Both the position numbers and the translations under genes were made by a program. Source: Reclinomonas americana ATCC 50394 (Eukaryota). From it: DNA of 48,970 nt. Location of the stretch: assembly GCA_048213135.1 (NCBI GenBank), contig PS015400.1, forward strand, positions 62,001-110,970, in the 5' to 3' direction. Below the pieces are notes generated by a model. The model searched no databases. It worked only from the letters and a program-made list of their open reading frames with translations, and was not told where the DNA came from. Below, in pieces: positions 8,213 to 34,200 of the stretch (the first letter of the stretch is position 1; every line of letters starts with the position of its first letter).

Positions 8213-8266
8213 GGACGACGGACGGAGAGACGGAATTAGCATTTTTCTTAGGTTTTCGCCCATGCG

Positions 8267-9474: not shown

Positions 9475-9557
9475 GAAAGGCCCATGAAAGCACACAATGA
9501 AGGAGGAAAAAACAAACGAAATGTATTTTGCAAGAGGCGGACCAGCAGGCGTCGAGC

Positions 9558-10225: not shown

Positions 10226-10352
10226 TCTCTTGATGTGTGTGCGTGAGTGTGTGTGGCGGTCGGCGCAGAGGGCGGGCAGCGAGGTGTGATTGATTGTTCC
10301 GAGCCAGTGGACCAACCAAGAACATCTCTTATATTATCTTTTTTTGTGCACA

Positions 10353-10892
10353 ATGGACTCTGCGCTGCTTGACTCTGCTGCCCGATCGTTGCGCATAGCT
10401 TCACACACACTCTCACAGACACGAGCAATCGCGGACGTGTGTGTGTGTGTGTAAAGAGGGGCGAAAGAAGTTGTTGAGAGATGCTCATGCATGACCACAC
10501 ACACGCACACGCACACAGGGTCGGAGCCGACGGTGTGACTGGCGTGTTGTGCACGGACGAGTACGGCTTGTGCATTGCAGGTAATGGCAGAGAGCGTGCT
10601 TGTGAGCTGTGTGCGTCATTGTGTGCTCACTCGTGCGCAGCCAATGGATCCGCCAACGCGCGTGGTGCCGGCTACGTGAGCTCCATTGCGACACGGGCGT
10701 CGGCACTGTCAAACCCCGACGACGTGCCTGTTGTGTGCGTGGAGACGCTCTCCAAGTTGAGCACAGAGAGAGATTGAGTGGATCTGTTGTTTGTGTGGTG
10801 ATCAGTGGCTGACACACGTGTGTGATCTGTGCAGGAAGATTCTCATCCGAAGGGTTGACGCGCAGACGACTGCGATCATCAAGGACAAGTGA
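10353..10892 (+). CDS. LAMTOR5: Ragulator complex subunit LAMTOR5/HBXIP (4 exons)
   Basis: Spliced product MDSALLDSAARSVGADGVTGVLCTDEYGLCIAANGSANARGAGYVSSIATRASALSNPDDVPVVCVETLSKKILIRRVDAQTTAIIKDK* matches the LAMTOR5 motifs GVLCTD.QGL, AG.IS..A..A..L and D.PVVCLE. Confidence 0.92.
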
Positions 10893-10998
10893 GCTACTCG
10901 GGTGTGCAGTCTGTTGGTGGAAGGAGGAAGAGCGGAAGAAGATGGAAGACCATGATGAAGGATTTTGTGTGTTACATTGTTGTTTTTTTGGAGGCACT

Positions 10999-13900
10999 TC
11001 ACAGCATTGTGCAGCGGTGTTTGGCTTCACCCCAGTGACACGTGCAGCAGATGCAGCACAAGGCGAGGCACTTGGGGAAGCACTGGTTGCCGCATGTGTC
11101 GCAGTGGCAGGCGGTGACGCAGGTCACGCAGGATTCGTGCAGGCAGTTGGTGATGCCGAACTCGCGACTGCGGCTGCGAGGGTAAGGATCAGCACAGATG
11201 GCGGCGCGCGTGTGTGCATGTGCGTCGGTGGCACCACAGTAGACGTACCCGGCCAGTTCGTCGCGCGACAGCTCCCAGGTGCCAGGCGGTGCGATGCGTT
11301 TCTGGTACACGGTTTGCTCTCTGCCCTCGCCGTACCACTGCACTAGCAGGCCGGGTCTACCGTTCTCGTCAATGGCCCAATCGTCGTGTACCATGATCAT
11401 GTAATTGCGGGAGAACAGGAACCTGTGTGGTGGAGTGTGTGAGGAATCACGAGGTGTGGGAGGCAGCACCACGGACTCGGTCACCGTTCGCGACGTTGAT
11501 GCTCGGAGGCGTGACGGGGATAGAGATCGAGCCTGCGGTGTCGTGTTATGAGTTTGCTTGCCTGCTTGCTCATTACGCAAGCACATGACGGGCGCGCAAC
11601 AAGTAGGCGTGCATGCCGGGTGTCAGGTGTCGCGATGTCGATGTGTGACTGGCGAACCACGACATGGGTCCGGCCGGCAGATCACTCGGTGGCATGGCAG
11701 TGATGCCTGTTGTTGGGGGAGCAGTGAGTTGCAGTGGCATGGTGTGCACTCACCACTTCGGTTCGTTCACAAACCACTCGATACAAGTTGATTCATCAGC
11801 TTGACACTGGTGGCGGTGAGAGGGAGGAGATCACAACACAGCAAGTACTCATTTCTGCAGCGGGGCTCACTTTTCGTACTCGGGAGGAACGTCTGCAAAC
11901 GCTGGTGCACGTCTCGATTCACACACGCCCTATTGACTGACGAGTGAGTGCCATACAGCCTCTCTCATGTGCCGATGATACAAGATCACACCTGCCCGGC
12001 CACGTGCGGGTCACCCGAGATGAAAATCACTCGAGCACGCTTCTCCACGGCCAGCTGCACGTGCACCACACCGCCATGTGAGCAACACACCACTCCGCGC
12101 TCCACAAACACAAACAGATTTACGAAACAGTCTGAAAGTTCTTGAGCAGATCCGCTCGCTCCGCACGGTGCTGCACGGTGGACCATTGATCTCGCAGATC
12201 GTCTTGCACCAACACCAACATATCAGTGGCAAATGATGAGGCAGTGATCAGCGCATCGAGAGTCATTACCTTCGTTGTCGGCTTGGCCAGGAAGACTCGG
12301 CAATGTCTGTGCTTGCCACACGTCATGTACCATGTACAAGTACACGAGAAACAGGATGCCGGCACCAATGCAACTCACCATTCCAATCACTGCGACAATG
12401 CGCATGAGCTCATGACAGCACAGCGACGACGCATCACACAATTACGCAACACTCGTAGTTGATCCAGATAATCGGTGTCGGAGACGAGACCACAATGAAC
12501 CGAACCTCACCCTCATCCAAGTTCTGCATGACGACACACCGTAGCGTGTGCTGAGAACTGTGTCGTCCCACTTGCTGCGGTGACTCGCGACGAAACTGCC
12601 AACCACTCCATGATACGGCGATGCGTTTCCACTTTCACCACCTGTCGCTGCGAGCGCTCCGTGCGCATGTCCACCGCGACAAAAGCCCAATCGCCGAGCA
12701 AGTGCACGTATGTGGCCGACACCTGTGCATCACTGCACATCACTCAACTGCAGCTGCAAAGACACGTGGAACAGCAGCACGCGCTCTCGCACCTCCGGGT
12801 TTCCAAGCAGGTTGGTGCGAAAATCGCCAGCCAGCTGGAAGGCAAGAAACATTTCCTGGGCCACCTTGAACAGACCCTGCACGGCACCAGTGAACCTAGT
12901 ACGTGAAGGAGTGCATATGCATCACAGCTGTCTCCACCGCGTACCTGCATCACTGGCGACTGTTGATCTGCATCGCGGTACGATCCCCAGCCATCGAACT
13001 GTGCGCGCACACACGTGAACAGCAGCTCGCCCACCAGTAATCCACCACACGCTGCACATTACGCACAATATCGTGATCGTCCCACATGCATGAGAGCGGC
13101 ACCTGGCACATCACTCGCGAAACCGGAAATGAGCCCCAGTTGCTGCAGTAGTCGTCCCAGAAAAATCGATGCAGTGAGCGGTGCATTTCGTCGGTGAAGG
13201 GCGTCTCTCGGAGCGTTCGTGTGGCCTCCGTGTCACCGTACATAGCCTCCGCCGACTTGTCCACCCACTCACGCACTGCAGCGACCGCAGACCACACTGG
13301 ATCGGCGTAGATCTGATCGCCACCCATGTGCATCCTGCATGCACGATGTCATGAAACAACAACAAATGAACAGTTCGGCACGATTCGATTGTCAAAGAGT
13401 GTCTGCAGACGCAACATGTGATACGGTGGTGCGTCCTCTGGATCCAGGTGCGTTTCACGCAAGTGCTCCCACATGGCGAACAGAGTCGCGTCTTCTGTTT
13501 GCTCCTCCACCAGATTCGACATGCCAGAGTTGCCGTTGCATCTGCGGAAGACAGGTGAGCAAAAAAAACCAGAAGAGGTGTGCGAGTGTAGACTCGACTG
13601 AGAAGACGCAGCGAGGCAAAGAGCAAATTCGGAGCCGTGCCCACGGGTGGCACTCGGAACTCAAAGCGAAACGACGGCTGATCAAATTTGAACTCGGAGA
13701 ACGAGTAATGCACGACCTGGTGCACGTCATTCTGTGGCACATCCATGTCCCATCGAATGAGGGCCTGTCTGCCATCACAATCCATGGCCACTGGAGCGAC
13801 TGCTTCGACTGTTTGCGGTTCGCATCCGGGCGATGTCGACTGCCAAGTCAGAGTGCCTGGTCGTCTGCGCATTCATGCAGGGCAGATGTTGTTGGATATT

Positions 13901-14911
13901 GCCGGCATGCAGTATTAGCTCCGGTTTTTGCACGCAACTGTGGTCGATGCAAAACCATGCTGACGCCGACACTCCACACATTGTCCTCACATCCGAGGAA
14001 ATGGAGCACGGGCCCCCGACGAACACTGTTTGGCAATGGAATGCCAAACCACAGCATCGGCGCGCCCACTTGCAGGAGTGGCGAGTCATCCTACGACCGC
14101 AGCGGTTTTCATAAGCTGTCCGTCGATCGACTCGCCACGTGACTGGTGCACGATAACTCACCTCCGTCCCACGAGCGCTGAGCAGCTTCTTGGGAAAAGC
14201 ACCCTCCGGACAATCGATCCACCACCCCGTCTGCGACCTTGCCAGATTCCTGCAACGGCTCAGCAGATGAAATCTGCATGAACTGCACAAGATGGCAAAT
14301 CACATCACCCACTCACTTGATCTGGAACTTTTCCAGCTCCCACGCTCGATGGATATCGCGCTTCCTAAAGTACAAGCGCACTCCAGCGAGCTCGTCCTGC
14401 CCCAGGTCCTCGGTTTGCAGGCAGAAACGGTCGATGTTGCGTGGATGAAAGTTCGAACGATCCTTGCCGTACTGTTGAGTCGCGTGAGTGCCAAGGACAG
14501 AAACAGGTGGCGAAGAAAGAGAAAGAGAAGCCCGCGCCTGCAAGTGATTGTCGAGTACGATGGGTGGCAACTCTTGTCCGTTGGACTTGACTGCAACGAG
14601 CGCGGAAGAGGAGGGAGATGAGCATAGATCGAGAATCTCTGACAAGTGGCGCGCGCCGCACCGAGAACAATGGTGATGAGCTGCTCATCGTTCTTGCGAC
14701 TGCGCTCGCCCGTCCACATGAACAACTCATAGGTGGCATACGATGGCACGGGTGCCGCGTCGACAGACGCCTCGGCGGATATCGAATGCGCCGGAACTGC
14801 ACCACCCGCCGTCAGCGGATCCACCATCGGCATCAAGGCGACGGCATTCGGCACCGCCAGCTGTGGAGCCATCGCGGAAGGTGGCACGACGACGACTGCA
14901 CTGTCAGCCAT
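10999..14911 (-). CDS. PhoD-like (alkaline phosphatase D family) metallophosphatase with an N-terminal PLAT/LH2-like domain and a Cys-rich C-terminus ending in CaaX; multi-exon
   Basis: PhoD motifs after splicing: RGPVLHF, LFAS/CNG, PYHM/MHMGGDQIYAD, MWDDHDI/FDGWGSY, VDMRTERS, DDLRDQW, RVIFISGDPH, NQLVSS/GITAMPP, SRNY. PLAT-like N-terminus: YELFMWTG..ITIVL..NFHPRNIDRFCLQTEDLG..GVRL..AWELEKFQI. Ends ..KCLALCCICCTCHWGEAKHRCTML*. Confidence 0.85.
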
Positions 14912-15097
14912 CGTTGCGTGCGAGCACCCACTGAAAACGAAACATAAAAAGAAGAAAAATTCCGGCGGGCGATAATGGTTCTCTTGTCACGACGACCAGC
15001 AGCACACACTGAGCTCACACAAACATTCACACGATGCATTACAACACTTCAACCCAGTCACCAACAGGAATTAAAATAATGATCTACAGCCGCTCAT

Positions 15098-16179
15098 TTA
15101 GTAGCCGTACTCGTCTGCCCCGTCCGGATCGTCGTCGTCGTCATCGTACTGGCCGTCGCCCTCCTCACCGTCGTCTTCGTACGAATCGTACTCGCCGTCG
15201 CCATGATGCACCGACGAGAAGCCCTGTTGCACGGTGCGCATCTGCGCCAGTTCGTGCATGCGCTGCCGCCGCTTCTCCAGCATTTTCTGCGTGCACGCAT
15301 GTCATGAGCAAAAAGACATTTCATCGCAGTGACCCCACAGCGCGACAAACCAGCTCGGCTTCCCGCTGTGCAGCCTTTCTCAGTGACCGCTCCACGTCCT
15401 GACGTGCCTTGGACGCTCGTTGCTCTGCACGTGTGCGCGTTGAGTGGTGTGGCGTGCGAGGAGCCGTCACGTGACGAGTGCACACACAAACCATCGATAA
15501 TGAGCTTGCGCTGTAACCGGACAACATCCACCTCCGAGAACTCGGTCAGCGCTCGTGCGATGATCTCCGTCTTCAGCTGCACGCGGGTGGTGAGATCGGG
15601 AAGCACGCCAAGCCGACACTGGCGACACAAAACACATACACACGAACCTTTTGCTTCTTGACCTCGAGCGCACGCTGCCGTCTCTGCTCCTGCCGTTCCT
15701 TTACTCGATTCTCCTCGTCTAACCGCTCGTTCTCCGCCACCAGATCCACTGCGTACGCACAGCTAAGCACAAAAACGCACACTGGGAGGGAGAGAAAACA
15801 AACACGCAAGCAGCGAACCTGTGAATGGACTGCGCTCTGTTCTCCGCTTCCACGTCGCCTGCTGCGCGTTCTGCCGCTGCTTCTGCATGGTCTTCAGCCG
15901 TTCCTTCTCCTGCTCACGCTCCCGCTGAAGCCGTTGCCGCTCCGCCTCCCGCTCCTCCATAATCTTCTGACTCTCGCGATACATGCGCCGCGGGGTGATG
16001 GGCGCCGGTCCCCGATGCGGGTAGTGGTAGCCAGGCCCACTACCGCCACCACCTCCCTCAGCTCCACCACTGCCACCACCACCAGCAGCGGCTCGACTTG
16101 CCTCGCGACTATGTGTGTGTGCGTGTGTGAGAGAGAGCGAGTGACTGCGTTGATGACGCCACTCACGCAACGATGACAT
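15098..16179 (-). CDS. Uncharacterised Arg/Glu-rich coiled-coil protein with an acidic tail; multi-exon
   Basis: ATG TCA TC|gttgcgt..tag|T CGC GAG.. gives MSSREASRAAAGGGG..MEEREAERQRLQRERE..ERSPF../VDLVAENERLDEENRVKERQEQRRQRALEVKKQK/..LKTEIIARALTEFSEV../MLEKRRQRMHELA..DDDDDDPDGADEYGY*. Confidence 0.75.
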
Positions 16180-16481
16180 CCATCCACGCGACGGCTTCTG
16201 AGCAGGCGCCGGTCGTGTTCTACCCAGCAGCACCAGTGAGCTCTTTCTCTCTTGACACGCACTCAGATAACACAAAACGCATCCAACCTGGCTGAGCCGG
16301 GCCCTGTGTACAGTGATGTCTGCCGCGTGCGCTTGATAGCCTCCACGTGGTGCGAAGTCGGCACCTCCACTAGTGGCGAGAAGTGGAACAGACGCGGCTG
16401 TGTGGAGTTGAGAGAGTGTGAAATGAGCGTGGAGAGTGAGATTTAACGATCAACGCACAGTCTGTGTGTGTGTCGCTCCCC

Positions 16482-17091: not shown

Positions 17092-18018
17092 NNNNNNNNN
17101 NNNNNNNNNNNNNNNNNNNNNNNNNNNNNNNNNNNNNNNNNNNNNNNNNNNNNNNNNNNNNNNNNNNNNNNNNNNNNNNNNNNNNNNNNNNNNNNNNNNN
17201 NNNNNNNNNNNNNNNNNNNNNNNNNNNNNNNNNNNNNNNNNNNNNNNNNNNNNNNNNNNNNNNNNNNNNNNNNNNNNNNNNNNNNNNNNNNNNNNNNNNN
17301 NNNNNNNNNNNNNNNNNNNNNNNNNNNNNNNNNNNNNNNNNNNNNNNNNNNNNNNNNNNNNNNNNNNNNNNNNNNNNNNNNNNNNNNNNNNNNNNNNNNN
17401 NNNNNNNNNNNNNNNNNNNNNNNNNNNNNNNNNNNNNNNNNNNNNNNNNNNNNNNNNNNNNNNNNNNNNNNNNNNNNNNNNNNNNNNNNNNNNNNNNNNN
17501 NNNNNNNNNNNNNNNNNNNNNNNNNNNNNNNNNNNNNNNNNNNNNNNNNNNNNNNNNNNNNNNNNNNNNNNNNNNNNNNNNNNNNNNNNNNNNNNNNNNN
17601 NNNNNNNNNNNNNNNNNNNNNNNNNNNNNNNNNNNNNNNNNNNNNNNNNNNNNNNNNNNNNNNNNNNNNNNNNNNNNNNNNNNNNNNNNNNNNNNNNNNN
17701 NNNNNNNNNNNNNNNNNNNNNNNNNNNNNNNNNNNNNNNNNNNNNNNNNNNNNNNNNNNNNNNNNNNNNNNNNNNNNNNNNNNNNNNNNNNNNNNNNNNN
17801 NNNNNNNNNNNNNNNNNNNNNNNNNNNNNNNNNNNNNNNNNNNNNNNNNNNNNNNNNNNNNNNNNNNNNNNNNNNNNNNNNNNNNNNNNNNNNNNNNNNN
17901 NNNNNNNNNNNNNNNNNNNNNNNNNNNNNNNNNNNNNNNNNNNNNNNNNNNNNNNNNNNNNNNNNNNNNNNNNNNNNNNNNNNNNNNNNNNNNNNNNNNN
18001 NNNNNNNNNNNNNNNNNN
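17092..18018. other. Assembly gap (N run); further gaps at 18439-18844, 36007-36026, 36766-37081 and 45214-45347
   Basis: Runs of N. Confidence 1.
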
Positions 18019-18355
18019 GCTGCATGGAGGGCGCCTGAGCGTCGGCCGCCGGCGAGCCGGGACCAGCCGCCGCCGCAGCAGCAGAGGGACTGCCGACACC
18101 GCCGGCAGCCGCCGCCGCACGACGTGCAGTCAACGCGCTCTTCACGCCCTGTGCAAGGCGACGCAGAGCCTTGGGCGGGCGTCGTCCGTGTAGCGGGTTC
18201 GGAGCGGCGAGATCCAATGCACTGTCGAGATCTTCGTCATCATCATGACCACCACTTGCGGCTTCCTGCGCACGCAGGCTGGCTGCCGCTTGCGCTGCCA
18301 GTGCGCCTAACGCGCCGGGCAGGCGGAAGCGAACACCTTCGCCGCCGTCAGCCAT
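18019..18355 (-). CDS. Ala/Gly-rich N-terminal coding fragment (MADGGEGVRFRLPG...) on a small contig between gaps; probably the mis-oriented first coding exon of IP3R paralog 2
   Basis: ATG at 18355 is preceded by a pyrimidine-rich acceptor (ctcgcccacttgcag). The frame stays open into the gap, and IP3R-2 has no visible start codon. Confidence 0.55.
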
Positions 18356-18844
18356 GAGAGTGTAGCTGCAAGTGGGCGAGCGAGAGAGAGAGTGCGTGAG
18401 AGGCAATGTCTCATGTCCACAACTCTCGGAGAAACACTNNNNNNNNNNNNNNNNNNNNNNNNNNNNNNNNNNNNNNNNNNNNNNNNNNNNNNNNNNNNNN
18501 NNNNNNNNNNNNNNNNNNNNNNNNNNNNNNNNNNNNNNNNNNNNNNNNNNNNNNNNNNNNNNNNNNNNNNNNNNNNNNNNNNNNNNNNNNNNNNNNNNNN
18601 NNNNNNNNNNNNNNNNNNNNNNNNNNNNNNNNNNNNNNNNNNNNNNNNNNNNNNNNNNNNNNNNNNNNNNNNNNNNNNNNNNNNNNNNNNNNNNNNNNNN
18701 NNNNNNNNNNNNNNNNNNNNNNNNNNNNNNNNNNNNNNNNNNNNNNNNNNNNNNNNNNNNNNNNNNNNNNNNNNNNNNNNNNNNNNNNNNNNNNNNNNNN
18801 NNNNNNNNNNNNNNNNNNNNNNNNNNNNNNNNNNNNNNNNNNNN

Positions 18845-19212
18845 TGGTGCCTGCGCGTCCTCCGCCGCCTCCCGCCAAGATCTTCTTGCCGCGTGAGGAG
18901 AGCTTGCAGTATGGCGGTGCGTTATGCATCACGGCTCTTTTTCTTGTATTCATTTACCGATCTCTCCACTTGCAGACGTGATTTACTTGCACACGCAGCC
19001 GGCACGCCGTGCGGAGGGCAAGACTCGCAGTGGTGGCTATCTGTCGACTCATGGGTTGCGTCCGTCTTGCACAGTCGGTGTAATCGTCATCGCCGTCGTC
19101 GTTGGTGCTCATTATGTTGCGCGTAGAACTGGCGATCGGCGCATTGTGCTGTCGCGTGGATCGGAAAAGTCCCCGCCTGTCGACTTTCAAGGTACGAGTC
19201 GCCTCTCTCATC

Positions 19213-19251
<39 letters not shown>

Positions 19252-22200
19252 TCTTCTTCTTTCCCGTGCTTACATCTCTTTGGCCTGCAGATGCCATGTT
19301 CCGCGTCATGCCGCGACAGAGTCACTCGGCACGCTTGCGCTTCGAGAGCGAGTGCAAGAAGAGCCAGTTCTGGAACAAGAACAAGTACGCCGATGGCGAC
19401 TTTGTGGACGTGGCGCCCGACATGCTAGAGACGCTGGTGCGTGGAAAGATTGGCGACGAACTGCTGGCGCACCCGCCGGCCCGTGTTGGCGTCGAGCCCG
19501 AGCTGGCGCCCGAGCATATTCACGCGCAACCGGGTCACCTCTCGGACGCTCTCGCCTGCGTGCAAGTGTCCGCTGACGGCAAACTGGTGGTCACTGGCCT
19601 CTCGAACGGCACGTTTTGTGTTCACCGACTCGACCCGGCGAGCGAGAACGGAGTGGAGCCGTCGTTTGTGGCGCAAGACGACTTCAAGTTTCACGAGACG
19701 CCGCTGACGGTGGCGGCCTTTAGCGCGGACAAGAAGTCGATCATTACCGGTCTCGACAATGGCTTTGTCTTTGTGTGGGACGTGGCCACAGGCGCTGTTG
19801 AGCGGCGCCTGGAAGGCCCCACCAGCGGCCTGGACTGTGTCGGATTCTCACTGGATCGCAAGTTTGCGATTGCCGGTGGTCACGACACCAAGGTGTGCGT
19901 GTGGGACTTGACGGTCCACTCGCAATCGCAGCCGAAGCATTACATGGCTGGCCATACCGACTGGGTGCGCGCCGTGTGCATCTCTCCGGACAACACCCGG
20001 GCCTTCAGTGGCAGCGACGATCACCACGTTCGCATGTGGTCCATGGAGAACGGCCGCTGCCTCAAGATCTTCAGGAACCACAACGACTATGTGCGGTCTC
20101 TGACAATGACTCCCGACGGCCGCTACTTGGCATCCGCCGGCGACGACAACAAGATCTGCCTGTGGGAGGTCGACAAGCCGGACAAGCCGGAGCCGCGAAT
20201 CATCGCTGCCGAGGACTGCTCCTACATTATGAGTATGGCGGCAAATGGCACGCATGTTGCCATGGGCGACAACGGCGGTAAGGTGCGCTTGTACAGCCAC
20301 CTGGTCGGCGGTGATCAGTCGCCGGTGGCCGAGGAAGACGATGCGGTGCATTCGAGCTCCGTGTCTGCTGTTGCCTTCACTGTTGACGGCCGCATGGTCC
20401 TTGTCGGCCACGAGGATGGTTATCTCCGGGCTCTGTCCGTTGAGGGTCGGCGACTCGTGCAGCGGCTATCCGTGCAGCCCTCCGCAGCAGGTGTGCGCAG
20501 CATCAGCGCCATTGATCGAGATCACATTGTCGCGGTCTGGCAGGACGCGAATGTTCGAGCGGTATCACTGCAGACGTGTCAGCCAGTCGATGTCGCAACG
20601 CTTCCACCCAGCGTCTACGTCGTGCACAGCACGATGTACGATCACCTAGATTCGAATCGCTATCACCTGGCCTGCGTGTCCGCCGTGTTCTGCGCCACTC
20701 TTGCCGGCACCGAGTACAAGGTGGTGGCGGCCGATGACAGCACCATCAAGGTGTTTACGGACCAGCTGGTTGCCGAGCGTGCGTCCGTGCACAGTTCTCG
20801 CGTGTGCCGCATGCTCCCTGTACGCGTCGCTGGCAACACCTGCACCTTTGTTACCGGCAGCTACGACCGCGACCTGGTGTTGTGGTCGCTGACAGTGGCC
20901 GCCGACGGCAGTGTTTCCATCACCGAGGTACGTCGCATGTCTGGTCACACGGACTACATCCGGTCGGTGGCCCTCTCCCCCGACGGCCAATACGCCTTCA
21001 CGGCCTCCGACGACAACTCAGTGCGTGTGTGGAACCTCACCACTGGCGAGACCGTGTGCCGCCGTGGTGATTTTAGTGGTTGGGTGTTTTCTGTCGCGTG
21101 TTCCTCCAACAGCCGCTTCATTGTTGCCGGCGCGGACGGCAACCCAGCACGCCTCTGGCGCTGGCAAGAGCGACGTGGAATCGCGCCAGCGCGGCGTCCG
21201 CGCGGAGAAGGCGACGGAGAAGGCGACGGAGACGATGACGATGAGCCGTGGGATGGCATCACTGACAGCTCGCCGGAGACTGTTTTCGACTTCAACGGCG
21301 ATCCGGATGCTGGATGGATCGGTCGAGCCCGCGACATGGTGATTACCCCCGACTGCAACTACGTCATCAGCGGTCACGAGGACAACAACATTCGTGTGTG
21401 GTCTGTCGAGCGCTTGGAGGAGATCGCCGTCCTCCGCGGTCACGAGGGCACAGTTGTCAGCCTCATGCTGCTGGCGCCGCCGGCACCTGGTGTTCAAGTG
21501 CCGTACGACTTGCAGCTGCTGAGCTCTTCCGACGACCGCACTGTCCGCATGTGGAACGTGAGCTTGAGCTCGGTGGCGGACCCGCAGCATGTGTTTGGAC
21601 GGCGCTCGGTGGCCACCGGCGAGGTGGTGAAGGAATTCCGTGGTCATTACCAGTCGGTCAACACGTTTGCTCTGACGCGCGACGGGCAACACATTGTCAC
21701 CGGCAGTGACGATCGTTCCGTCCGTACCTGGGCGCTGGCCAACGCTCAAACGGTCGATGTTATCATGGGCACGAGTCACAGTGGTGCCGTTGCTGGCGTC
21801 GCCTTGTCCCGCGATGGGCGGTTCGTTTTTACGGCCGGCGCCGACAACACCGTGCGCAAGTGGGACATTGACACGCATGAACACTTGCATGTGTTCCTTG
21901 GTCACACCGACTCGGTGAACTGCGTTGTCTTGACGCAGGACGGTCGCTACATGATCAGTGGCGGCGACGACTGCGCTGTGCGTATCTGGTCGCTGGAGTC
22001 TCAGCAATGTGTTGCCGTGCTGGCGGATCGTCATTCGCGAGCGGTGATCTCGCTTGCGCTGTCTGCCGATGATCGGTATTTTGTGAGCGCAGGTCGCGAC
22101 ACTCAGACGATTGTGTGGGATCTCGAGGCCGCCGTGGCGAACGCTGACGGGTATCAACCCACCGTGTTGCCCATTTTCCACACCGACTGGGTTCGCTCAG

Positions 22201-25200
22201 CGTGCTTTGCGCCTGACGGCTCCTTTGCTGCCGGCTTCGACTTTGGCCACAATGACGAGCTGACTCTGGCATTCCGTGACGCCCTGTGCAGCGGCGACAG
22301 CGGTGCCGTGGTTGTCACTGGTTGCGACGATACCGTCGTTGTCGTGTGGTTCCGCCGACGTCCCGGAGACGAATACTGCAAGATGTACGAGCTCCGTGGC
22401 CACATCAACTACATTGCGTCGGTGTCGGTGACACCCAGTGGCTTTATCATCAGCAGCGCCTTTGACAGTTCTGTGCATGTGTGGTCGCTTGGAACGGGTG
22501 AATCGCTGCAGTCTCTGACTATCAAAGACAACAACGGCGAGGGTTCCATACCGAACGCCGTCACCCACCTCAGCTGGACATGTGCCGCTCAGTCGGTGAT
22601 TTCTGCTCGTTCGACTCACCGCTTGCACCACGGCGGAGGGCTTGGCAGGAACTTCCGCTACGGCTTGGCCGCCTGTGCTGACGGTCGCCTGCGCCTGTGG
22701 AACGTTGACAAGGTCGCAGACATGCTGCGGTGGCGAGCAGTCGTGCGACGCCGCAGTGCGTGGCCGGCAGTCAGCAGCTCATCGGCTTCGTCGTTGGCCG
22801 ACGGGGACAGCGGTGTTGACTTTGATGCGCTCTACGAGGAGACTGCGCAGGTCCTGGATGCACAAATGGTCGAAGAGTTTCGGCACTTGGTGCAGCTGCA
22901 GCGTGCTCGCTTGTCCGAGGATACCGAGAACAAGTCGGTGACGGAGCGTCTTGGAGGCTTTGTGGTCCGATTCGGTGACGCGGTGCAGTTCAAGCACGAG
23001 CGCTCGGGCATGTACCTGGCCGTGACTGCTGATCTCGCCTACACCGATCGCCGTGGTGCAGCAATGAAGGCCAGTGTCAGTGAGGACGCCGGGAATGCGT
23101 TCTACATCGAGTCTGCCACCAGCATTCGCGTGGAGGGCGATGCGGTACGTAGCACTTCGCATACTGCTACACTTGAAGGAGGGATATACTGACTCGCATT
23201 TGTTGTCCTTCCTCGCAGATCCGCATGGGTGACGGTATTCGTCTGTGCAGTACGCAGTACCAGTTGTACGTCCACCCCAGCGACCATTACTTCAAGGACA
23301 ACCGCAAGCACGAAATCATTGGCGCCAAGCATCACACTCGGTGGACAATCCACCAGTACACTGACTTCTCTTGCCCGCGAGATGTCCTCAAAGCCGGTGC
23401 GTTGCTTGTCGTCACTGAATGTTCCATGCCGTGTACGATTTTTTCGACTTACCACTCGAGTACAACGCAGGTGACGTGTTGTACTTGCATCACAAGCGGA
23501 CGAATGGCTTCCTCAGTGCGCACGACAACAGCGACTTGTCCATGCCGGCAGAGCAAGGTCAGTAGGTGTTGTCGTAATTTTTGTCCCGGCTCCACTGGAA
23601 GAGTCAATTGACGTCGCTTGCTGCGCAGGCCATTTGCGCGTGTCGCCGGCGGGTGAGCACATTAGCCGCGAGCAACTGTTCTCTGCGAGCAGCATGTGGG
23701 AGGTGGAAACGGAGTCTGTAACCACTGGTGCGTCTCGCTTGTACAACATGATTGGTTGATTTGATCGCTGACGTGTCGTTGCTCAGGTGGTCCTCTGCGC
23801 TGGAAGTCGTGCATCCGACTGAAGCATGTTGCAACTGGGCGGTATTTGACGCAGAAACGTCAGCATGGTGTGTACATTCAGAGTAATGAGCTCTTGCGCA
23901 CCTTTGTTGTTGCTTGCTGACATGCAAAATGGTGACGTGCGCGGCAGACGGAAGCCGTGTGCTGGCAACGTGTGACACGCGCCGTCCGAGCACTGTGTTT
24001 GTGGTGCTTCCGCTGCTGGAGGTATCGTTTGCGCCTCCGCTGTGTGTGCACGTTCTTGTGACACTGATGCATTGCGCGTGATTATCGTACAGAGCGAGGG
24101 ACTTATTCAAGTCGACGATCATTTCTTGTTGTTCCACAAGAAAACGCGGTCGCTGCTGCGTGCTGACCTCGGCAAAAAGGCCACAGAAAAGCATGACGGT
24201 CGCTCTCGCAAGCTTCCTCTCACTCTGTCGAGCAACGACGGAATCCCGCCGGATGAGGACGCGTTCTTGGCTCACGTCGCACCCCCCGACGATCTCGGCC
24301 GTCTCTACAAGGCGTGCTCACTGAAAGGAGCCTTTGTGCGCTTTGTCGAATCGGTACACTCGCAACGTTGCAGAATTGTCTCACCTTGTATCTCGTCTTA
24401 CTCACTGGCTTGTTTGTTTCATCGTAGGTTGGATCGCAAGACCTGAGTGTTGCTTGCGGTGTGCCCAAGTTCCTCAAGGCCGAGGACGCACTGAACGAGC
24501 TGGTGAGCATGTGCACGGAACAGGCGACGCGACAGCGAGATCGCTGGAACCAGCGTCTCTTGCGACAGCTTGACGTGCGTACGATCATGGCCGCTCGCAA
24601 TGCGTGTGTGCGAGCATCCCTTGCTGACTCAAGACGTTGTTGCCGTTGGCAGATTGTGCATGCAAGTTTCACCATTCTTCGCCGGCGGCTGCAACTGGAC
24701 GCCGAAATCTCACCCGAGAGCGAGTCCGATGAGGAAGACGACGAGGCCACGGCGTCCGTGGCTGGCGAGGGTGGACTGGACACCGAAGCTGATGCCGTCG
24801 GTGCCGGTGATGAGGAGTCCGACGAGGACTACGACGATGGATCAAGTGACGACGAAACGGAGGAGGAGGATCCCAGCAGCCGCGTGAAGCGTCTCGTGGT
24901 TCTGTGCTGCAAACTGTTGCGCGGCATTGTGACGGGTTCGACGACAGGCCAGGAAGAAGTCTTCTTCTCGCGACGCGGCTACTTGCAGATGCTAAAGGAC
25001 ATGCTAAAGGACGAAGATGATGATGTGGCTGACCAAGCGGCGTACGCTATTTCGGAGGTGTTCCGCGACAACTCGAAGCTGTTGCACAGTGAGGGCTGCC
25101 GGCGATTCATCAACGACATGGTGAATTTGTTGATTTATCGCAACTGGTCGAGTGGCTGGAAGATCATGGCGCGAATCTTCGACATTCTCCGCACGCTGTG

Positions 25201-28200
25201 CGTTTGCAACGGTCGCAGTGTCCCCGGCAACCAGCGAGTTGTGTTGGAGCGATTTGCCGACAGCATCGATTTCAGCAACGAGCGGGAGCCGAAGCCGTTT
25301 GAGGGCCAGTTGGCTTATGGTCTAATCGGCGTCAGTTTCGAGGGGCAGGTGCGGTTGCTGTTTCCAAAGTCGCTTGGTGAAGCTCCATTAACGTGCGTTC
25401 CTCTTGTTATAGGTCATGAAGATTGCCTATCGCTCGGACGGCTTCCAAGACGAGCCGACCAAGGTGAATTTGCAGGATGCGGCCACCAAAGCAGACGATG
25501 ACGAGGAGGCGATGATACAGGCACTTCGCCTGCAGTTGGAACTGATCGCATCTTTGTGTTTGGTTTGTTGTCTTACGTTCGCGAAACTCATTGCCAGACA
25601 GTTCACGTCTCTCGCACTGTGCAGAATCGTCGAGTGCCGACTCGTGAGACTCTGCCACGCGCAGATCGAATTGATCAAGCACTCTTTGCCATGATCGAGC
25701 ACACTCTTTCGCGCGACGTGTTCGAGGTGGCCAAGGTGCTCGTTGAGACCGATCCTCGAGGCCGGTCGCAAGGCGTCCAGGGCAAGGAAGACGATGAGCG
25801 GCTGCAGAATGCAGCAGATAGTTTGCGCAAGGCCGCTGCTATCTTCATCCAGTACCGATTCGTTGACGTGGATCCATTCTTTGAGCGTCCCGTGCTGTAC
25901 TCCACTGAGGCGACGGCGGAGCAAGAAGCAGCTGTGCCGCTCAATTTCGACCAAGGAGCAGGCGTTGAGATGCAACCAATGGGTGCATCCGGTGGAGACG
26001 ATCGGAGAACGCGAGGTGAGATGCATGGATCGAGCTTCATTCTCCCGCTCGCTTCATCGCTGACTTTTGTTTGCGTGTGCGGGGACAGGAAATGAGAAGC
26101 CACCCACGGCGGCGTTCCGCGATGTCATTATTGAGCTGCTCCAGGGCAAGACCAATCCAAGCTCTCTGCTCTCAACAGTTACGTAACCTCTGCCCCGCTG
26201 CTGTCAACCCTCTCAAGCGCCAACATGAGCGCACAGTTGCTTCGGTCACTTTCCATGCTTGTGCGCTGGGGTGAAGTGCCGCTGGACCATTTCGACCAGA
26301 TCGTCGAAGGTGTCCGTAAGATGCTGGAGTATCACGACCCTGGTGTGTGTGCTGTTGTTGGGTTTTCATTCGCTCCCAACTTTTCCGCTGACCGTTTCAC
26401 TTGCGTGTAGACATCAAGGAGACCAAGCGGTTCCATTCCCTGCCTGCCAACGACATGGTTGTACGTTGCAAGATTGACTGCCTGGTGCTGCTCAATGACC
26501 TCTTCGATGTGCGCCTACGGCATCGAGTGCGCCGCCTGCTGCGCGAGTACTTGGCGAACGGTGCGCCTGCCGCCAACTCGGTTGTATCGAGAGAACATCT
26601 GGAGACCTTGTTTTTGGTGTGTACGCTTGATTTGTACCCGACAAGCTTAAGTCTTAGGTACACGCTGAACGTGGCTTCTTGTTTTCTGCACTTGCAGGAG
26701 GAATGGAAGGACTTTTGGAGTGCCAAGGAGGAGGACAAGATGGCGCATTTGCTGCTCGACTTGTGCAAGTATGACTATCCAAACATCCGTCTGCCTGCTC
26801 TGCAGCTCCTTTTCCGCATCCATCGGTGAGAACACGCCACCAATTCCACTGTGTGCCCTATTCCAGCAGAACACTTGTCTGACCGCCGGCGACCTTGTGC
26901 CTACTCGCAGTGATGCAGAGGAAGTGTGCGATGAGCTACGCTCCGCAGTATTCAAGTCGGTGTACGATGCGGAGGTGGTGGATGTGGCGAGCAACATTGC
27001 AGCGCTCCAGGCCCGCGGTACTCGAGTGACTGATTCGGATGACGACCGACGGAGTTGCATCGATGGAATTACACGGATTCTCGACGGTGAGTGTGCTCGC
27101 ACATGAACGTGTTGGCATTTCATGCACTTGCTCATCCCAAGCATACGCACACAGCTCTTGTCGCTCGTGACGCAATTGTGAAGGAGTGGCGACAGGCTCT
27201 TGATGGACTGCGGTACGCGCCGAACCCAGTTGCGCGTCAAGCGTCGATTCGGATGCTGGAAACTCTTGCCATTGGTGAGCACGTGGAGTAGTCGCTCATG
27301 ATTGTAGTGATTTCAGTCACTGATGTGTTGGTGGCAGAGCTGGAAGACAGAATGCCAGAGTTCGAGTCGTCGCGACTGCGTGCAGTGTTGAAGCGGTTCC
27401 TGGCGGCGCCGACTGCGCGACAGCGTCAAGCGGACATGCACATGATTGAGGAGCTGACGCGAGGTGCGTGGAGTCACCATAGTGCATTGTATTCCGGGTC
27501 AGTCAGTCAATTCTTCTTTGTGCAACCAACAGAGGTGACCGAGAGCGAGCTGCCACTCCGTCGCACCCAGCAGCTGTTGCATCAGCTCAACATGGGCCGT
27601 ATCGCCATTGCACTGCTCAAGCTGCCACTGGATTATGTGTACCAGGGCCGCCAAGCACAATCTGCGGGGGACACGTCGGACAGTGAAGTCACTATGACGT
27701 TCCTGTTCACCCAAATTTACCGCTTGCTTACTCTGGTACGGCAAAACCGCAAGTTTGCGCAGACATGTTGCCATCGTCATCTGATATTTTGTGGCATTCT
27801 CGCTATAGATGGTGCGGCACAACCGTGCGAACCAGAAGTGGTGTGCGTCGCACCTTGAGTTGTTCATGAAGCATTTGCGGTGAGTCAACGCTGAAGTTAG
27901 TTACATTTGCCCTGACAGCAAGTTGTCTCACTGCACGTGGTTCGGTAGGTTCTTTGATCCGGAAGAGCAGAGTCCGAAGCGCGCGGAAAAGGCGAAACTG
28001 CATCGTACCGTGGTGCGCTTCCTCACCGAGCTCCACGAGAACAATCACGCACTCTGCCACGGAGCCCCCAAGGAATACGTGGCCGATATTATTGGTCTCA
28101 TTATCAAGTACGGTCGCCACGAGCGCTACTTGAAGATGCTCTCTGTGTTGCTGGAGCCCAGTGGACAAATCATGCCCGACAAGCAGCAGCAGGTCATGGA

Positions 28201-31200
28201 TCTGTTGCTGGAGCATAACGCGTACGAGCTGCTGCCGTTCATGTTGCGTCACTGCCGTGCCTCTGTTTGTTCAGCTGCTTGCCGGTCTCTTATTTCACTC
28301 ATCATTCTGGACACAGTGTTCGATCTCGGCGAAATCTCGACGTCGGTGGTGAGGACGAGTATGATGACAGCGAGAGCGGTCCCGGGGCACAAGAGGAAGG
28401 TGAAGAAGATAATGCCGCGGTAGAAGACAATGCCGACGACTTTGATGGCGACGACGGTCCGTTTGAGGACGACGAGTATCAGTCATCCGACGAACAGCAG
28501 CGCACCTACAATCTCGCTGCCTTCAAGCTGCTGACTCAGTGTGCCAAAGGAAAGCAGAAGACTCACATGGTTAGTCTGGCCTTGAAGTGTTCGTCTTTGT
28601 TGTGCCTCACCGATTTGTCTTGTGTCATTGCCGCAGGCCGAGACCATGTGTCAGAGCTTGCTTCCTTTCCAAAAGGCTTTCGAGTTGCGCGAAGCTTTTG
28701 ATGACGAGACGGTGTTTGATTTCGTGTACGAGGTCTACGTCAACACGGAGCTGCGAGCAAATGCCGTGAAACCAAGTGATTATCACCAGTTTGTGGCAGA
28801 GGTGATCACTGGCCTGGAGGCATTCGTCAACGAGTCAGCGTCGTCGGACGCCGCTGGCGCCAATCAAGTAGACGCAGATGTCGACGGTTCGCTTCCTCGC
28901 TTGCTCACAGTTACACGCATCGTGGGATCTCATGTGAATCGTTTGTTGCCATGTAGTCGACCCTGACGAGGCCGGCGAGTCCTCTGTGCGTGAGACGTTT
29001 GAGCGACATTGGGAAGTATCGTGCAAGGACCAAAAGGAGCATTTTGAGAATGCTTTCTTGCACTACGCACCAATTCTCATTGGCGCCCTGGAGTCGCCGC
29101 TCGCTACGTATCACAACGATTTGCTGGATAGCAATCCGTTGCGTTTTGTGGCATGACAACGGTTGTGTGTCGTTGCCTCTCGCATTTACACATGCGATCT
29201 CGTGCAGGCAAGTAAGGAACCACATGTCAAGCTTGACTGGAGATGCCTTGCGCGTGGTCAGAAAGTGTTCCACTGACCGCTGGGTCAAGGAGGCCGAGGA
29301 GCTGAGGAAGGCCTACCAAATCGGCAGCGGAAATCCTGATGAAGGCTCCGTTCACGACACGGTGACAGCCTCGCAGCAAGGTTCCGGCGGGCATCGTGAC
29401 CCGAGTCGGGCTTTGTCCTCACCGACCTCGCCGACGCGGGAGACGACGCTGGACTTTGAATTTGGCGTGGCAGTCGACGACATGACCACCGACGATTTCA
29501 GTGACGAAGAGGAGATGGAGGACGCGCTGCTGGACAAGACTAAGTCGCCATCGAGTCCGCAACATCGCCCGTCGTCGGCAACTCGTGGAGGCCCTCACAG
29601 TCGACGAGCCAAGAAGTCATGCTGCGGATGGCTGTGTTGTGGATGTACTCGATGCTGTGCTGCGGACGACGCCGACGACAATGGTCGCGCTGGTGCTCCC
29701 TCGGCGCCCACCAAGGCAGCGGCGCTTGCCAAGCACGTCAAGCAGTTGCGTCTCTTTAGGTTGTCCGTCGCTCAATTCGTCGACTCTTTTTGACACTGGT
29801 CGTGCCTGTGAGCAGTGAGTACTTTGAGTTTGAGCGTGAGCAGCTATCGGCTTGCTTCCTTGAGCACGACGACGAGGCACGCCGCCGGCGCGCGGCGGCC
29901 AATCGCCCTTCGCTCTTCCGACGGATCTTTTGCTGTGGCCGTGCAAGAGGCAAGGCGGATTTCCAACACCAGTCGTTCGACGCCCGACGACTTAGCAACA
30001 AGCACGTTCGCTATTTGTACCTCGTCCTCGCCCCAGCGTTGCGTTCTTCCTTGCACGTGTTCGTGATCAAATCCGTCTCTACGAATGACACCCTACTGAC
30101 CGCAGCACCACGGAGGAAGGCCGCGATTCGAAGATCTACCATGATCCGGTGATCAACAGCTTGCAGACGCTGACACGAGTGCTGGACGCCAATTACAAGC
30201 TTGCTATGCGTGAGCACAACCCAGACTCGAAGCCGCTGGTGGACAACCAAAACATCCTGTGTCAGCATGGATATGTGGGGCTGATGTTGCAGCTGCTGAT
30301 CAGTTCCACTGAGGAGGTAATGCAGCGTGCGCTCGAGTTCGCCATCGCCATGCTTCAGCGCGGCAACCGCCGAGTGCAAGAGGCTGTGCTACACTTCTTC
30401 AGAACCCATCACGATCACGGCTTTTTCCACTTTGTCCGGCAGCGCTTGCGCCACACGTCACTGGAACTGGCCGAGACGAGCCGACATGAAGAGGCTGGCC
30501 AGGTCGGCCAGGAGCAACGCCGTGAGATGCACAGAGCGATGGTGACGACGGAGAAAATCCTGCGTCTGCTGCAATTGTTGTGCGAAGGCCACTTCCGACC
30601 GTTGCGTTTGCACCAGCAGAGATGTCGCGGGTGAGCAAGTGGCACTCATTCTGCGGCGGTGTGCACAACAGGCTGCAGGATTATCTGCGCGAGCAGGCAG
30701 ACTATTTGCACACTGTGGACCTCGTCAGCGAGACTGTGCAGTTCCTTGACGACACCGAGCGATTCATCAGATCTGGCAGTCTCACGTTGACTATGGCTGA
30801 CCAGACATTCTGCACGCTGTCGGAGCTAGTGCAGGGTCCGTGCGTTGAGAACCAGGTGAGACGAGTGCTGCTGGGATGTGTGGCTTGAGTCGTTGTGAAT
30901 GTCGACGACTCATGTGCGTGTGCTTCAGAAACGACTTGCCACCTCAAAACTGTGCTTCGTCATCAACCGCATTCTTCTGCGTCACTTTGTGCCGGCGCTG
31001 GAGATTGAGCGCGACTTCCGTGCGATCGGTCGATTTGAAAGCGGCCGGGTTGAGCGGCAGCGTAACAACTACGAAGTGTTGATGCTTCTGGTGAGTGTGG
31101 CAGTACATGGTGGTCATCAGTCCTTCATTTGTTTGTTCATGGTGTTGTGTTTGTGTGTCCGGCAGCGCAATGCATTGGTCTGTGTCAACAGTTTGATGGA

Positions 31201-34200
31201 GGGCGGACAGACAGTCGACGAGGATGTGTTGCACTCTGTGCTTGGCGGTTTCGATGTGCGTTACTGTCGATTTTACTTGCGGGGATCGTTTGCTTCGGTC
31301 GTCGTAACCATTCCTTCATGTTTCTGGTGTGCAGTTGCGCAATGTGCTCCGGTGCCATGACCTCATTGTGCAATATCTCGGCGGTCGTCTCAGTGACGGC
31401 GACACGTACGACCCAGTGCTGGACAAGCGCGTCACGTCGTTGACCACTGTGGTGTGTGTCACCTTTCAGCACTTGCGCGAGAGAAGCTGTGTTGCTGACG
31501 TGTCGTTGTTTTGTGTTCTTTCCCCTTTCGTGCAGCCCAACATGAGCAGCATCATGGCGGACGACATGGACTCGTCGATTGAGGAGAGCGATTCACCGCA
31601 CCATGCGCACCTCAAGATGCTCCGCACGCAGTTCGAGTTCGGCATGTTGTGCTACTTCCTGACGCGCCAACTCAAGACGCTGGACCCCAACTTCCTCTCG
31701 GACTCGGTGGTTCAGGTGCCGGATGATTTTGCGCTGTACCGACGGTACGCTGGTCACGTGGAAATTCTGCGCGACGATCAGCTGGAAGACGTGTACTATG
31801 TGATTCCCAACTCGGCCTTCTTTTTGCCCGAGTCGACCATGGAGAACTTCACGCTGTCTGTCAACCGTGACAGTGCGAGCGCGAAGATTGGTGGCCTGCT
31901 CTCCGAGTACCCCAAGTTCTTGCGCATCATGGATCACCAGGAGAAGCTGCAGCGCAGCTGGATCTTCCGACTCATTAATGGCTCGAAGAGCACGCTCAAG
32001 ACGTTTACATTCATGCTGGCGCTGGCCATCAATCTCATTCTTCTCCTGACATCGGTGGTCACCGAGCGCCCCACGGATGACACTGTGTTGCGTACACCGC
32101 GCGTCCTTGCTGTTCCTCCGTTGCATGTTACTCATCTAGAAGGTACAGCAACGTGGACTTCAATTCGGATGGTATCAGCGGACTGCTCCTCGCTCTCGGC
32201 ATCTTGCAGCTCATCACAGCATTTGCGATCTGTGAGTGACTCTTTGTGTGCCTGCCGCCGTTTGTGTGTCTGGTAGCTAATAAGCACTCTGCTTTACAGT
32301 ATCGATCTACTCGATCGGAGAAGCGTACACCACAATCTTAAATCGCTGGCCAACCAAGAAGCAGCGAAGGGTCTGTAATAGCTGTGTTCTTGTCTGTGAG
32401 CATCGTTGGACTTCTAACACTGGTGGATGATGCACATGGTAGGAATCGCGTTCGGAGCGTCTCTCGCAAGCCAAGTGGCGGCGTCCCGAGAATTCCACTG
32501 ATTTTACGGCCGTCGATGTGCATCCGTTTAGCCACCATCGATCCAAATGGTGGTTCAGCTTTGTGTTCCTCTGGTTCTTGTTCCGCGACAATACGTTTGT
32601 GTACCAGGTGCGTGTCTCTGTGTATGCTGGCTGTCGCTGACGCAGTGTGTTAACCGACATGTGTGTGTGTGTGTGTGTGTGCACGTGCAGTTGATGTACT
32701 TGATTGCCAGCATTCTTGGTCTCGCGGTGTCGCCGTTCTTCTACGCGTTGCGTTGGGATTGCTGAACACTGCAGTGGGCGTGAGTGTTTGTGCGGGGCCT
32801 GACTGTCGCGATGCGCGATGCAGCTTCCACTTGTTCGACATTGTCACGCGCTTCCCCGATTTGCAAAATGTGATTCGGTCGGTGACAAAGAACTGGGCCC
32901 CTCTGCTGCTGACGGTGCGGTGGCGTGCTTGCGTGCATTCATATTTTGCTCTCGCGACTTATCATCCCCGTTTGCTGTGTTTGTGCGTGCGTGCAGTTTG
33001 GTGCGTGTGACGGTTGTGTGTGCCTTCCCGTTTACGCTCCCTAACATGCATGTGTACTTGTCTGCGTCTGGCGCGCGTCGTGATTATAGCTCTCGGTGAG
33101 TGCATTTGTGATTCCTTGCAATCTTGTGCTGTTGTTGATCTCACTCGTCCTGTGTCACCTCACAGGTGTCTTTATCGTCTACGACTTTTCGGTTTCGTCT
33201 CACTGTCCCCTGTGTATGTGTCGCTGTTGTGTTGTTCCAACGCCCTCTGTGCAGATTTTCGCGTACTTGTTCTACAACTACGAGTTCCAGCTGAATCCCG
33301 ACAACGCAATCCCGAACAGTCCCACTTTCCTGTGTGACTCGTTCATCTCGTGCTTCTTCTACTATTTCAACTTTGGGTGCGTCGTATTCTCTTCTGCTCT
33401 TCTATTGTTTGTTACTCTCCTTCTCACGTCATCATTCATTGTTCGCACGATGCAGACTGCGTGGCGGGTCACAGTTCGAGGTACATTGCATAGCGTGTCT
33501 GATGTGGGTGCATGTCGTGAACTGATCCCTTTTTTGTGTGTATGCAGGCGTTCTTCAAGACAGATGCCTCCGTTGGCCGCGTGTTCTTCGACCTGCTGTT
33601 CTTCTGTTCCGTCCATGTTTTTTTAACTTGTTTCTCCGACCCCCCATCCCACACGTGCTGACACGCTTTGCTTACCGCGCAGTCATCATCATTACGGTGA
33701 CACTGAACCTCATCTTCGGTGCGTGCCTGTCGGTTGCAATCAGTGAGTTGATGGTGACGCGCGTATGCTCACCGTCGCGACAGGTATCATTCTCGACACG
33801 TTCGGCGACTTGCGTAACGAGAAGGAGAAGCGTGAGGAGGATCACGGTAACAAGTGTTTCATTTGCAACCGTGGAAGGACAGACTTTGAGCGATCCGGCA
33901 ATGGTATGCCGTGTAATGCTGCTGCTGTGACGTTGACGGCGCTGACTTGTGCTGTCTTCTCCACTCACAGGCTTCGAGAACCACATTTACGAGCAGCACA
34001 ATATGTGGGCCTACGTGTTCTTCCTGGTTCGTGCGCGTGCTTGCATCCAGTGGCGGGTTGGGCTTGCTGACGTGCACCACAGGTGTATCTGGCCAAGAAG
34101 GACTACACCGACCTCAGTGGCACCGAGCAGTACGTGCTGGAACTGGTGAGAGCAACGCTGATGCAAAGCCACACCAATGTTTTTTGCTGCTGCTAACACA

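Follow-up and report, generated by a model that had tools for sequence, protein, structure and literature searches.

Here, we describe an IP3R-type channel gene in 48,970 nucleotides of genomic DNA from Reclinomonas americana ATCC 50394 (contig PS015400.1, positions 62,001 to 110,970), hereafter the window. The window, eukaryotic DNA with a GC content of ~57%, contains short GT-AG introns and five gaps of N. The gene, the second of two IP3R-like paralogs (paralog 2), probably forms one unit of many short GT-AG introns on the + strand between ~18.85 and 34.5 kb, and very probably carries an array of WD40 repeats inside its first beta-trefoil. N runs near the gene are confined to 17092-18018 and 18439-18844, and 18845-36006 is a single gap-free contig. 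The exon with the array (19291-23144, +; the big exon) has bounds that fit GT-AG splicing, with an acceptor CAG ending at 19290 and a donor GTACGT starting at 23145. It contains neither stop nor N, and its frame, which is open from 18897 to 23192 (+; 1,431 codons), runs for 1,299 codons to the stop (19293-23189), 1,284 amino acids (aa) being encoded up to the donor. Within this one frame, 32 residues of IP3R-type N-terminus are followed by a 1,156-residue insert and the rest of the first beta-trefoil encoded there. A first-pass annotation of the window had proposed an IP3R/RyR-type gene with about 21 WD40 repeats, inserted in frame into the helical arm of the first trefoil, with both junctions in one gap-free exon; each of these proposals is borne out by the data set out below.

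The 5′ part of the gene consists of two short exons ahead of the big exon. The exon 1 fragment (18845-18916, +) adjoins an assembly gap, ends with ...REESLQYG and is followed by a donor GTGCGT at 18917, across which the spliced frame stays open. Intron 1 (18917-18975, +; 59 bp, GTGCGT...CAG) has 72% pyrimidine in the 18 nt upstream of its CAG. Exon 2 (18976-19191, +) encodes (D)VIYL...GGYLSTHGL...SPPVDFQ and is assigned, by motifs only, to the initial strands of beta-trefoil 1. Its central part (VIVIAVVVGAHYVARRTGDRRIVLSRGSEK, 19080-19169, +) is hydrophobic and basic, has a low GC content at third codon positions (GC3) and lacks a counterpart in IP3R1. This segment could be an unrecognised 90-bp in-frame intron, the donor GTAATC and the purine-rich acceptor both being poor. 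Intron 2 (19192-19290, +; 99 bp, GTACGA...CAG) is itself in frame and stop-free, hence its retention would add 33 residues. It contains a (CT)23 tract, and the retained residues would directly precede the 1-8-14-like motif described below, with the frame kept.

Removal of introns 1 and 2 (59 and 99 bp, both GT-AG) joins exons 1 and 2 to exon aa 1-32 and yields an open N-terminus of 132 aa, in which three motifs and a QFW tripeptide occur in order at positions 20, 44, 90 and 121. The patterns scored for the three motifs, which we take to be motifs of animal IP3R1, were [LF].[IY]GD[IV], G[FY][IL]ST.GL and PP..F.D..F.[LV].P; a fourth pattern was partly fitted to the window. The chance expectation amounts to 0.0-0.19 motifs per shuffled window, and across its six reading frames the window contains a single G[FY][IL]ST.GL, at 19035. 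The big exon opens (19291-19388, +; exon aa 1-32) with (D)AMFRVMPRQSH..., encoding the 1-8-14-like motif followed by a putative handle helix 1 up to ...KSQFWNKNKY. The pre-insert residues (FQDAMFRVMPRQSH) are spaced like the 1-8-14 motif of IP3R1, onto which we presume them to map, and the handle lies ~ten residues past them. Handle helix 1 is assigned solely by the shared QFW tripeptide and by position. In IP3R1, the 1-8-14 motif comprises residues 53-66 and is essential for activation (PMC3685217). The suppressor domain of IP3R1 is likened to a hammer with a beta-trefoil as head and a helix-turn-helix as handle (PMC3685215).

Downstream of the insert, the trefoil is recognised by homology. 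The segment 22857-23144 (+) encodes the second helix of the handle (handle helix 2, DAQMVEEFRHLVQLQRARLSEDTEN...) together with the central strands of beta-trefoil 1 (...VRFGDAVQFKHERSGMYLAV...), as assigned by phmmer against the PDB and by Pfam. The translation of window:22650-23189 matches Pfam Ins145_P3_rec with an E-value of 1.8e-6 and 27.7 bits (cut-off 23), over profile positions 88-161 of 213 only. With window:22800-23189 as query, phmmer retrieves IP3R1, IP3R2 and IP3R3 chains and, more weakly, RyR1; the best match is 3uj0 (E 1.3e-5, chain residues 85-176). In this alignment, query residue 20, which is exon aa 1189, pairs with rat IP3R1 residue 85, and the alignment ends at residue 176. 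The IP3R alignments span the helix DAQMVEEFRHLVQLQRARL..., whereas those to RyR begin only at the next strand. Handle helix 2 thus aligned corresponds to IP3R1 residues 85-105, and a helix is predicted at residues 1181-1194 of the first structural model described below. The insertion point therefore falls between ...QFWNKNKY and DAQMVEEF..., the latter being aligned to IP3R1 residue 85. Judged from sequence, the insert (aa 33-1188; 1,156 residues made up of two ~50-aa linkers around 21 WD40 units) appears to replace the turn of the helix-turn-helix handle in the first trefoil. Intron 3 (23145-23218, +; 74 bp, GTACGT...CAG) separates the big exon from the next one (23219-23398, +), which was delimited by sequence and frame, encodes IRMGDGIRL...TRWTIHQY... 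and, when read by eye and without a family match, would complete beta-trefoil 1.

The insert itself begins with a 5′ linker (19389-19538, +; aa 33-82) that has no family match, continues with the WD40 units (19539-22706, +; aa 83-1138), which are supported by Pfam, unit alignment, AlphaFold and VIA-align, and ends with a 3′ linker (22707-22856, +; aa 1139-1188). For the protein encoded by the exon (window:19293-23189), Pfam gives 53 families at E<=0.01, and all of the 25 best listed are WD40 or beta-propeller families. PF00400 (WD40) alone is found with E 7.5e-98 in eight stretches. Delimitation by eye and with MAFFT gives 21 WD40-like units, which share a mean pairwise identity of 23% (maximum 51%). 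An acidic loop of ~44 aa separates units 12 and 13 (aa 626-669). Part of this loop (GEGDGEGDGDDDD) is encoded by a 12-nt tandem repeat of 3.2 copies at 21203-21240 (+), which could be a length-variable site. A check for DNA repeats that might underlie the array or a mis-assembly returned just the (CT)n tract of intron 2, the 12-nt repeat of the acidic loop and direct repeats in the form of 25-41-nt motif echoes, the best of which reach at most 77% identity. Since only such short echoes are present at the DNA level, the array is old and no recent amplification, and an assembly collapse is unlikely.

Two AlphaFold models suggest that the units close into propellers. For model 1 (exon aa 12-1211, from an alignment of 29 rows), the mean predicted local distance difference test score (pLDDT) is 66.5 and the predicted template modelling score (pTM) 0.49, with a pLDDT below 50 over residues 1-74; model 2 (aa 384-1165) reaches a pLDDT of 65.6 and a pTM of 0.59. 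Foldseek matches include the tandem-propeller proteins 2ymu (E 1.9e-38) and Apaf-1 (3sfz, E 1.5e-29). VIA-align of model 1 (961 chains) places aa 81-418/443 on the 7-bladed propellers of TAF5, G-beta and RACK1 (Z 31-34, root-mean-square deviation (rmsd) 2.4-3.0, 277-284 residues), and aa 675-1068 (units 13-20) on the 8-bladed propellers of ODA16, Tako8, Cdc4/Fbw7 and Rsa4 (Z 31-34). Model 2 (969 chains) contains a better 8-bladed propeller at aa 544-946 (units 11-18; Z 46.3, rmsd 1.7, 335 residues), in which the acidic loop is looped out; units 8-10 are unmodelled. Closed propellers, one 7-bladed and one 8-bladed, are thus well supported as predictions. A partition of the 21 units into 7+7+7, or into 7+8 with a third propeller from the remaining units, is plausible on the same models and would give three propellers.

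The region downstream of the trefoil encodes further modules of an IP3R-type channel. Among 57 open reading frame (ORF) pieces scanned with Pfam, seven have a match: Ins145_P3_rec once, RYDR_ITPR twice, RIH_assoc twice, and sub-threshold ANGEL2_N and a DnaJ match that belongs to the next gene. The first RIH piece (24428-25498, +) matches RYDR_ITPR with E 9.3e-12 and 45.3 bits, and a second piece (27884-28420, +) does so weakly, at 19.6 bits (E 7.3e-4), where 22.3 bits is the cut-off. RIH_assoc is found at 30526-30885 (+; E 7.8e-16, 58.3 bits) and again at 21.2 bits, its cut-off being 28.5 bits. Of the domain matches expected in the first-pass annotation, WD40, the post-insert part of Ins145_P3_rec, RIH and RIH_assoc were thus obtained, but the pre-insert part of Ins145_P3_rec was not, MIR has no Pfam match in the ORF pieces of 23177-24443, a region split into small exons, and Ion_trans has none at E<=0.01 in the ORF pieces. 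The channel region (31900-34520, +) consists of many small exons, with the first transmembrane helix at ~32000, a pore loop, S6 and CFICN, and the last stop near 34520, as assigned from frame translations. Reading of the frames between 32.0 and 34.5 kb by eye reveals transmembrane helices, S6 (IILDTFGDLRNEK), the CFICN zinc-finger motif, HIYEQHNMWAYVFF and HIYEQHNMW. Taken together, the gene is, by its sequence, a divergent member of the IP3R/RyR superfamily.

Several observations weigh against the layout proposed here or against its reading as a functional channel. The three propellers anticipated in the first-pass annotation are modelled in part, as closed 7- and 8-bladed propellers, but the register of the 8-bladed one differs between the two models (units 13-20 in model 1, units 11-18 in model 2), and the linkers and the handle are modelled at low confidence. 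An orthologue or a protein of the same layout was not found in limited protein searches, which is weak evidence of absence. At the pore, the spliced loop (33230-33470, +) ends with ...FNFGGLRGGSQFE and the filter reads GGSQFE, not the canonical GGxGD; GG[IV]GD is absent from every + frame of 31000-35000. Because of this filter, Ca2+ selectivity and even channel function are not assured. Furthermore, the pieces 23475-23756 and 24428-25498, which cover the IP3-binding region, yield no usable alignment to solved IP3Rs. These features, together with a divergence so high that a search of 1.84 billion protein representatives with the RIH exon yields no relative (a single match, E 2.9e-5, is unrelated by Pfam), would be expected if the layout were real and the protein were no longer a ligand-gated Ca2+ channel. 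The product would then act as a WD40 scaffold anchored in the membrane, or as a channel of altered selectivity and gating, with the IP3R core serving only for tetramerisation and membrane anchoring. However, the gene retains RIH_assoc and, as read by eye, S6 and the CFIC zinc-finger and HxxxEHNMW motifs, and the last filter position is still acidic, so that we regard this alternative as unlikely and favour a channel with WD40 repeats nested in its first trefoil.

A second set of observations concerns the pre-insert half. It has no Pfam match at E<=10, no IP3R match in the PDB and none in Atlas, and the first 87 positions of the Ins145_P3_rec profile are accordingly undetected by Pfam. The coding periodicity of exon 2 is weak (GC3 0.50-0.63). 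In addition, an in-frame ATG is absent from 18847-18916 when read by eye, and the start codon lies outside the contig, probably in the N gap 18439-18844. The WD40 array might hence be an N-terminal fusion and not an insertion, with translation starting at or after intron 2, for instance at the ATGs of ...AMFRVMPRQ (in-frame Met codons at exon aa 2 and 6), the WD40 array coming first, the trefoil lacking its first strands and the upstream exons being untranslated or unrelated; the missing matches of exons 1 and 2, the low GC3 of exon 2 and a true start codon hidden by the gap would all agree with this. Yet the three pieces joined by GT-AG splicing share one open frame, two IP3R-type motifs arise at the joins, and shuffled windows contain the third motif, G[FY][IL]ST.GL, 0.0 times on average (200 shuffles). 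Moreover, a beta-trefoil that starts at profile position 88 of 213 would be structurally incomplete. We therefore consider an N-terminal fusion quite improbable. The description of the N-terminus as beginning normally in the first-pass annotation still needs amendment: the motifs are present, but two of the three, in LQYGDVIYL and PPVDFQDAMF, exist only after removal of 18917-18975 and 19192-19290, and just 32 pre-insert residues are encoded in the big exon.

Several data speak for a genuine insertion of the array. Throughout the two linkers, the WD40 array and the exons of IP3R type, GC3 amounts to 0.71-0.80, GC content at second codon positions is low and codon choice is similar. The 5′ and 3′ linkers have a GC3 of 0.80 and 0.73, respectively, and coding periodicity is kept across both junctions. 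Inside the big exon, no acceptor reaches 67% pyrimidine in the 18 nt upstream, compared with 72-78% for introns 1 to 3. On the other side, the big exon contains 22 donor-like GTRMG sites, and cryptic splicing is possible. No RNA runs are listed for 18850-24500. Three small public runs, seemingly of DNA type, share 0.08-0.09 of the words of 18850-24500; they belong to one study and one sample, which may be the source sample of the assembly. Support across the junctions, for which the first-pass annotation had suggested mapping of long reads or RNA-seq, was obtained for one of the two from contigs of these runs: they cross the 3′ junction at 22466-22947, a stretch that connects the last WD40 unit, via the linker, with handle helix 2, and show 0 differences, but they cover only this stretch and 21827-22003 of 5.65 kb, and none lies over the 5′ junction. 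The contigs of all three runs end exactly at 22947, without a loose end, which could reflect a k-mer branch or a heterozygous site. That the WD40 block is spliced out of the mature mRNA by an unconventional or cryptic route, or that it is a mis-assembly, might be suspected from a draft scaffold with five N gaps, the missing RNA run, the sparse run coverage and the donor-like sites, but is hardly compatible with two in-frame junctions within 1,299 stop-free codons, uniform periodicity and codon usage, the lack of an acceptor-like site, contigs that span the 3′ junction and the absence of long DNA repeats to mislead an assembler.

The second IP3R-like gene of the window, paralog 1 (1-7161, -), starts with an ATG at 7161, runs off the window and is very divergent. 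It has a handle of short, canonical length, with ~55 aa between MPR and ETN compared with ~1,208 in paralog 2. The first-pass annotation used paralog 1 as an internal short-handle control, and this is justified insofar as the site is short and Ins145_P3_rec is matched with E 4.6e-13 (87 of the 168 listed ORF pieces scanned, seven with a match), but the two paralogs are barely alignable: BLASTP gives one piece at E<1e-3 (best E 8e-4), and the list at E<=5 is mostly noise. The handle of paralog 1 holds an intron (...QHLH^VSAEQ...), and its spliced N-terminus seemingly lacks the PP..F.D stretch, unless a micro-exon is hidden in a 190-bp intron. Upstream of paralog 2, an oppositely oriented gene (MADGGEGVRF..., 18019-18355, -) begins at ~18355 and stands head to head with paralog 2; the upstream region common to the pair lies mostly within the N gap 18439-18844. 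A DnaJ gene (35410-35676, +) is located directly 3′ of the channel gene. Further neighbours comprise a calcineurin-like phosphoesterase (+), an enhancer of rudimentary (-) and a PhoD-like phosphatase (-) within 8206-16449, two adjacent equilibrative nucleoside transporter matches in ORF pieces at 38241-41702 (-; E 4e-11 and 3e-10), which could represent either two tandem genes or a single gene split in two, and, at the window end, GH125 (-).

Searches for relatives of the channel gene returned no protein of the same layout. With the whole exon, 32 matches were obtained among 3,022 candidates, all generic multi-WD40 proteins of 22-29% identity, with no IP3R family among the Pfam domains listed. 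Among 1,816 candidates of 565-2,000 aa, which are shorter than IP3Rs, none scored against the channel exon. Of 135 candidates among longer proteins, none matched exon region 1185-1299 at E<=10, and of 456 pattern matches in a metagenome scan with the post-insert piece, none was confirmed. In limited literature searches, we found no description of WD40 repeats inside the trefoil of an IP3R/RyR channel, which agrees with the statement of the first-pass annotation that the architecture was unfamiliar. WD40 repeats inside the first IP3R-type trefoil are most likely real and would be a new layout within a known channel family.

In animal IP3Rs, the suppressor domain couples ligand binding to pore opening, and many regulators dock on its surface. 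The product of the channel gene can be proposed, with somewhat more confidence than doubt, to be a subunit of an intracellular cation-release channel of the IP3R/RyR superfamily with a docking or sensor platform built into its suppressor domain. In this proposal, the 21 WD40 repeats would fold into two or three beta-propellers flanked by the ~50-aa linkers. The protein would assemble as a tetramer, by analogy with its relatives, and the cytosolic crown would thus carry four propeller arrays. The seven-bladed WD40 propellers RACK1 and G-beta-gamma bind animal IP3Rs in trans, RACK1 enhancing their activity and G-beta-gamma being able to activate them directly (PMC4887697, PMC3195729), and the same regulation had been invoked in the first-pass annotation. 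The propeller arrays might form the equivalent docking or sensor platform in cis. Occupancy or movement of the arrays could then pass via the handle to the trefoil and on to the gating machinery. Such a docking or sensor role in gating is reasonable, and we infer it in its entirety. A stronger version, which is conceivable although doubtful, is that the propellers themselves gate the channel: the 7- and 8-bladed pair would clamp a protein or a small ligand, as Apaf-1 clamps cytochrome c, pull the handle and open or lock the pore, thereby replacing or overriding IP3.

If propeller gating were true, the gene would add a new gating class to the IP3R/RyR superfamily and would be a case in which evolution has hard-wired regulation of the RACK1/G-beta-gamma type. 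A WD40 array in the handle would further imply that the handle turn tolerates very large insertions, a property of use when sensors or tags are to be engineered into IP3Rs. It would also provide a natural experiment on the effect of handle forces upon gating and hint that Ca2+ release in protists is wired to partners yet to be identified.

Comparison with known systems places the channel gene close to animal ITPR1-3 in its general plan. Both share the order of an N-terminal trefoil with handle, RIH and RIH_assoc, followed, as far as the frames read by eye indicate, by a six-transmembrane channel with a CFIC zinc finger behind its S6. Moreover, handle helix 2 aligns from IP3R1 residue 85 and a 1-8-14-like motif lies upstream of the handle. 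However, an 8-residue handle turn in the animal proteins contrasts with 1,156 residues including 21 WD40 repeats here, the filter is GGxGD in the former and GGSQFE in the latter, and identity is very low, with Pfam domain scores of 20-58 bits. Ryanodine receptors are the precedent for an IP3R-like core enlarged by inserted partner-binding domains, such as the peripheral SPRY and RY-repeat domains. These inserts are of other kinds and occupy other positions than the handle of the first trefoil, and the RyR alignments obtained here miss the handle helix.

With respect to the insert, the first predicted propeller superposes on both RACK1 and G-beta (Z 31.5, rmsd 2.9-3.0, 281 residues). RACK1 and G-beta-gamma are separate proteins that bind reversibly, whereas the propellers here are covalently attached, and a common fold is no proof of a common binding mode. 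Adjacent 7- and 8-bladed propellers, here predicted, also occur in Apaf-1 (7 + 8 blades) and in repetitive bacterial and fungal WD40 arrays (PDB 2ymu), and long multi-propeller proteins are the best sequence relatives of the WD40 block (22-29% identity). Unlike Apaf-1-type sensors, the channel gene lacks a nucleoside triphosphatase (NTPase) or STAND module, and unlike hypervariable WD40 sensors with near-identical repeats, its repeats are old and diverged (mean identity 23%).

The nearest described design is TRPW, that is TRP channels with N-terminal WD40 propellers from choanoflagellates and filastereans (bioRxiv 10.64898/2026.06.15.732245; PNAS PMC13663828). TRPW proteins are cation channels that form tetramers, occur in unicellular eukaryotes and carry at least one cytosolic WD40 propeller in the same polypeptide, a plan that would be shared by the protein described here if it assembles as a tetramer. 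TRPW, however, belongs to the TRP superfamily, its propellers are an N-terminal extension and not nested in a gating domain, and its sequence is unrelated to that of the channel gene. No TRP-type transmembrane domain was encountered in the channel gene, the channel and cytosolic domains of which are of IP3R/RyR type, and the likeness is thus one of design only. If the WD40-in-trefoil layout is true, the theme of WD40-bearing cation channels represented by TRPW would extend to intracellular release channels.

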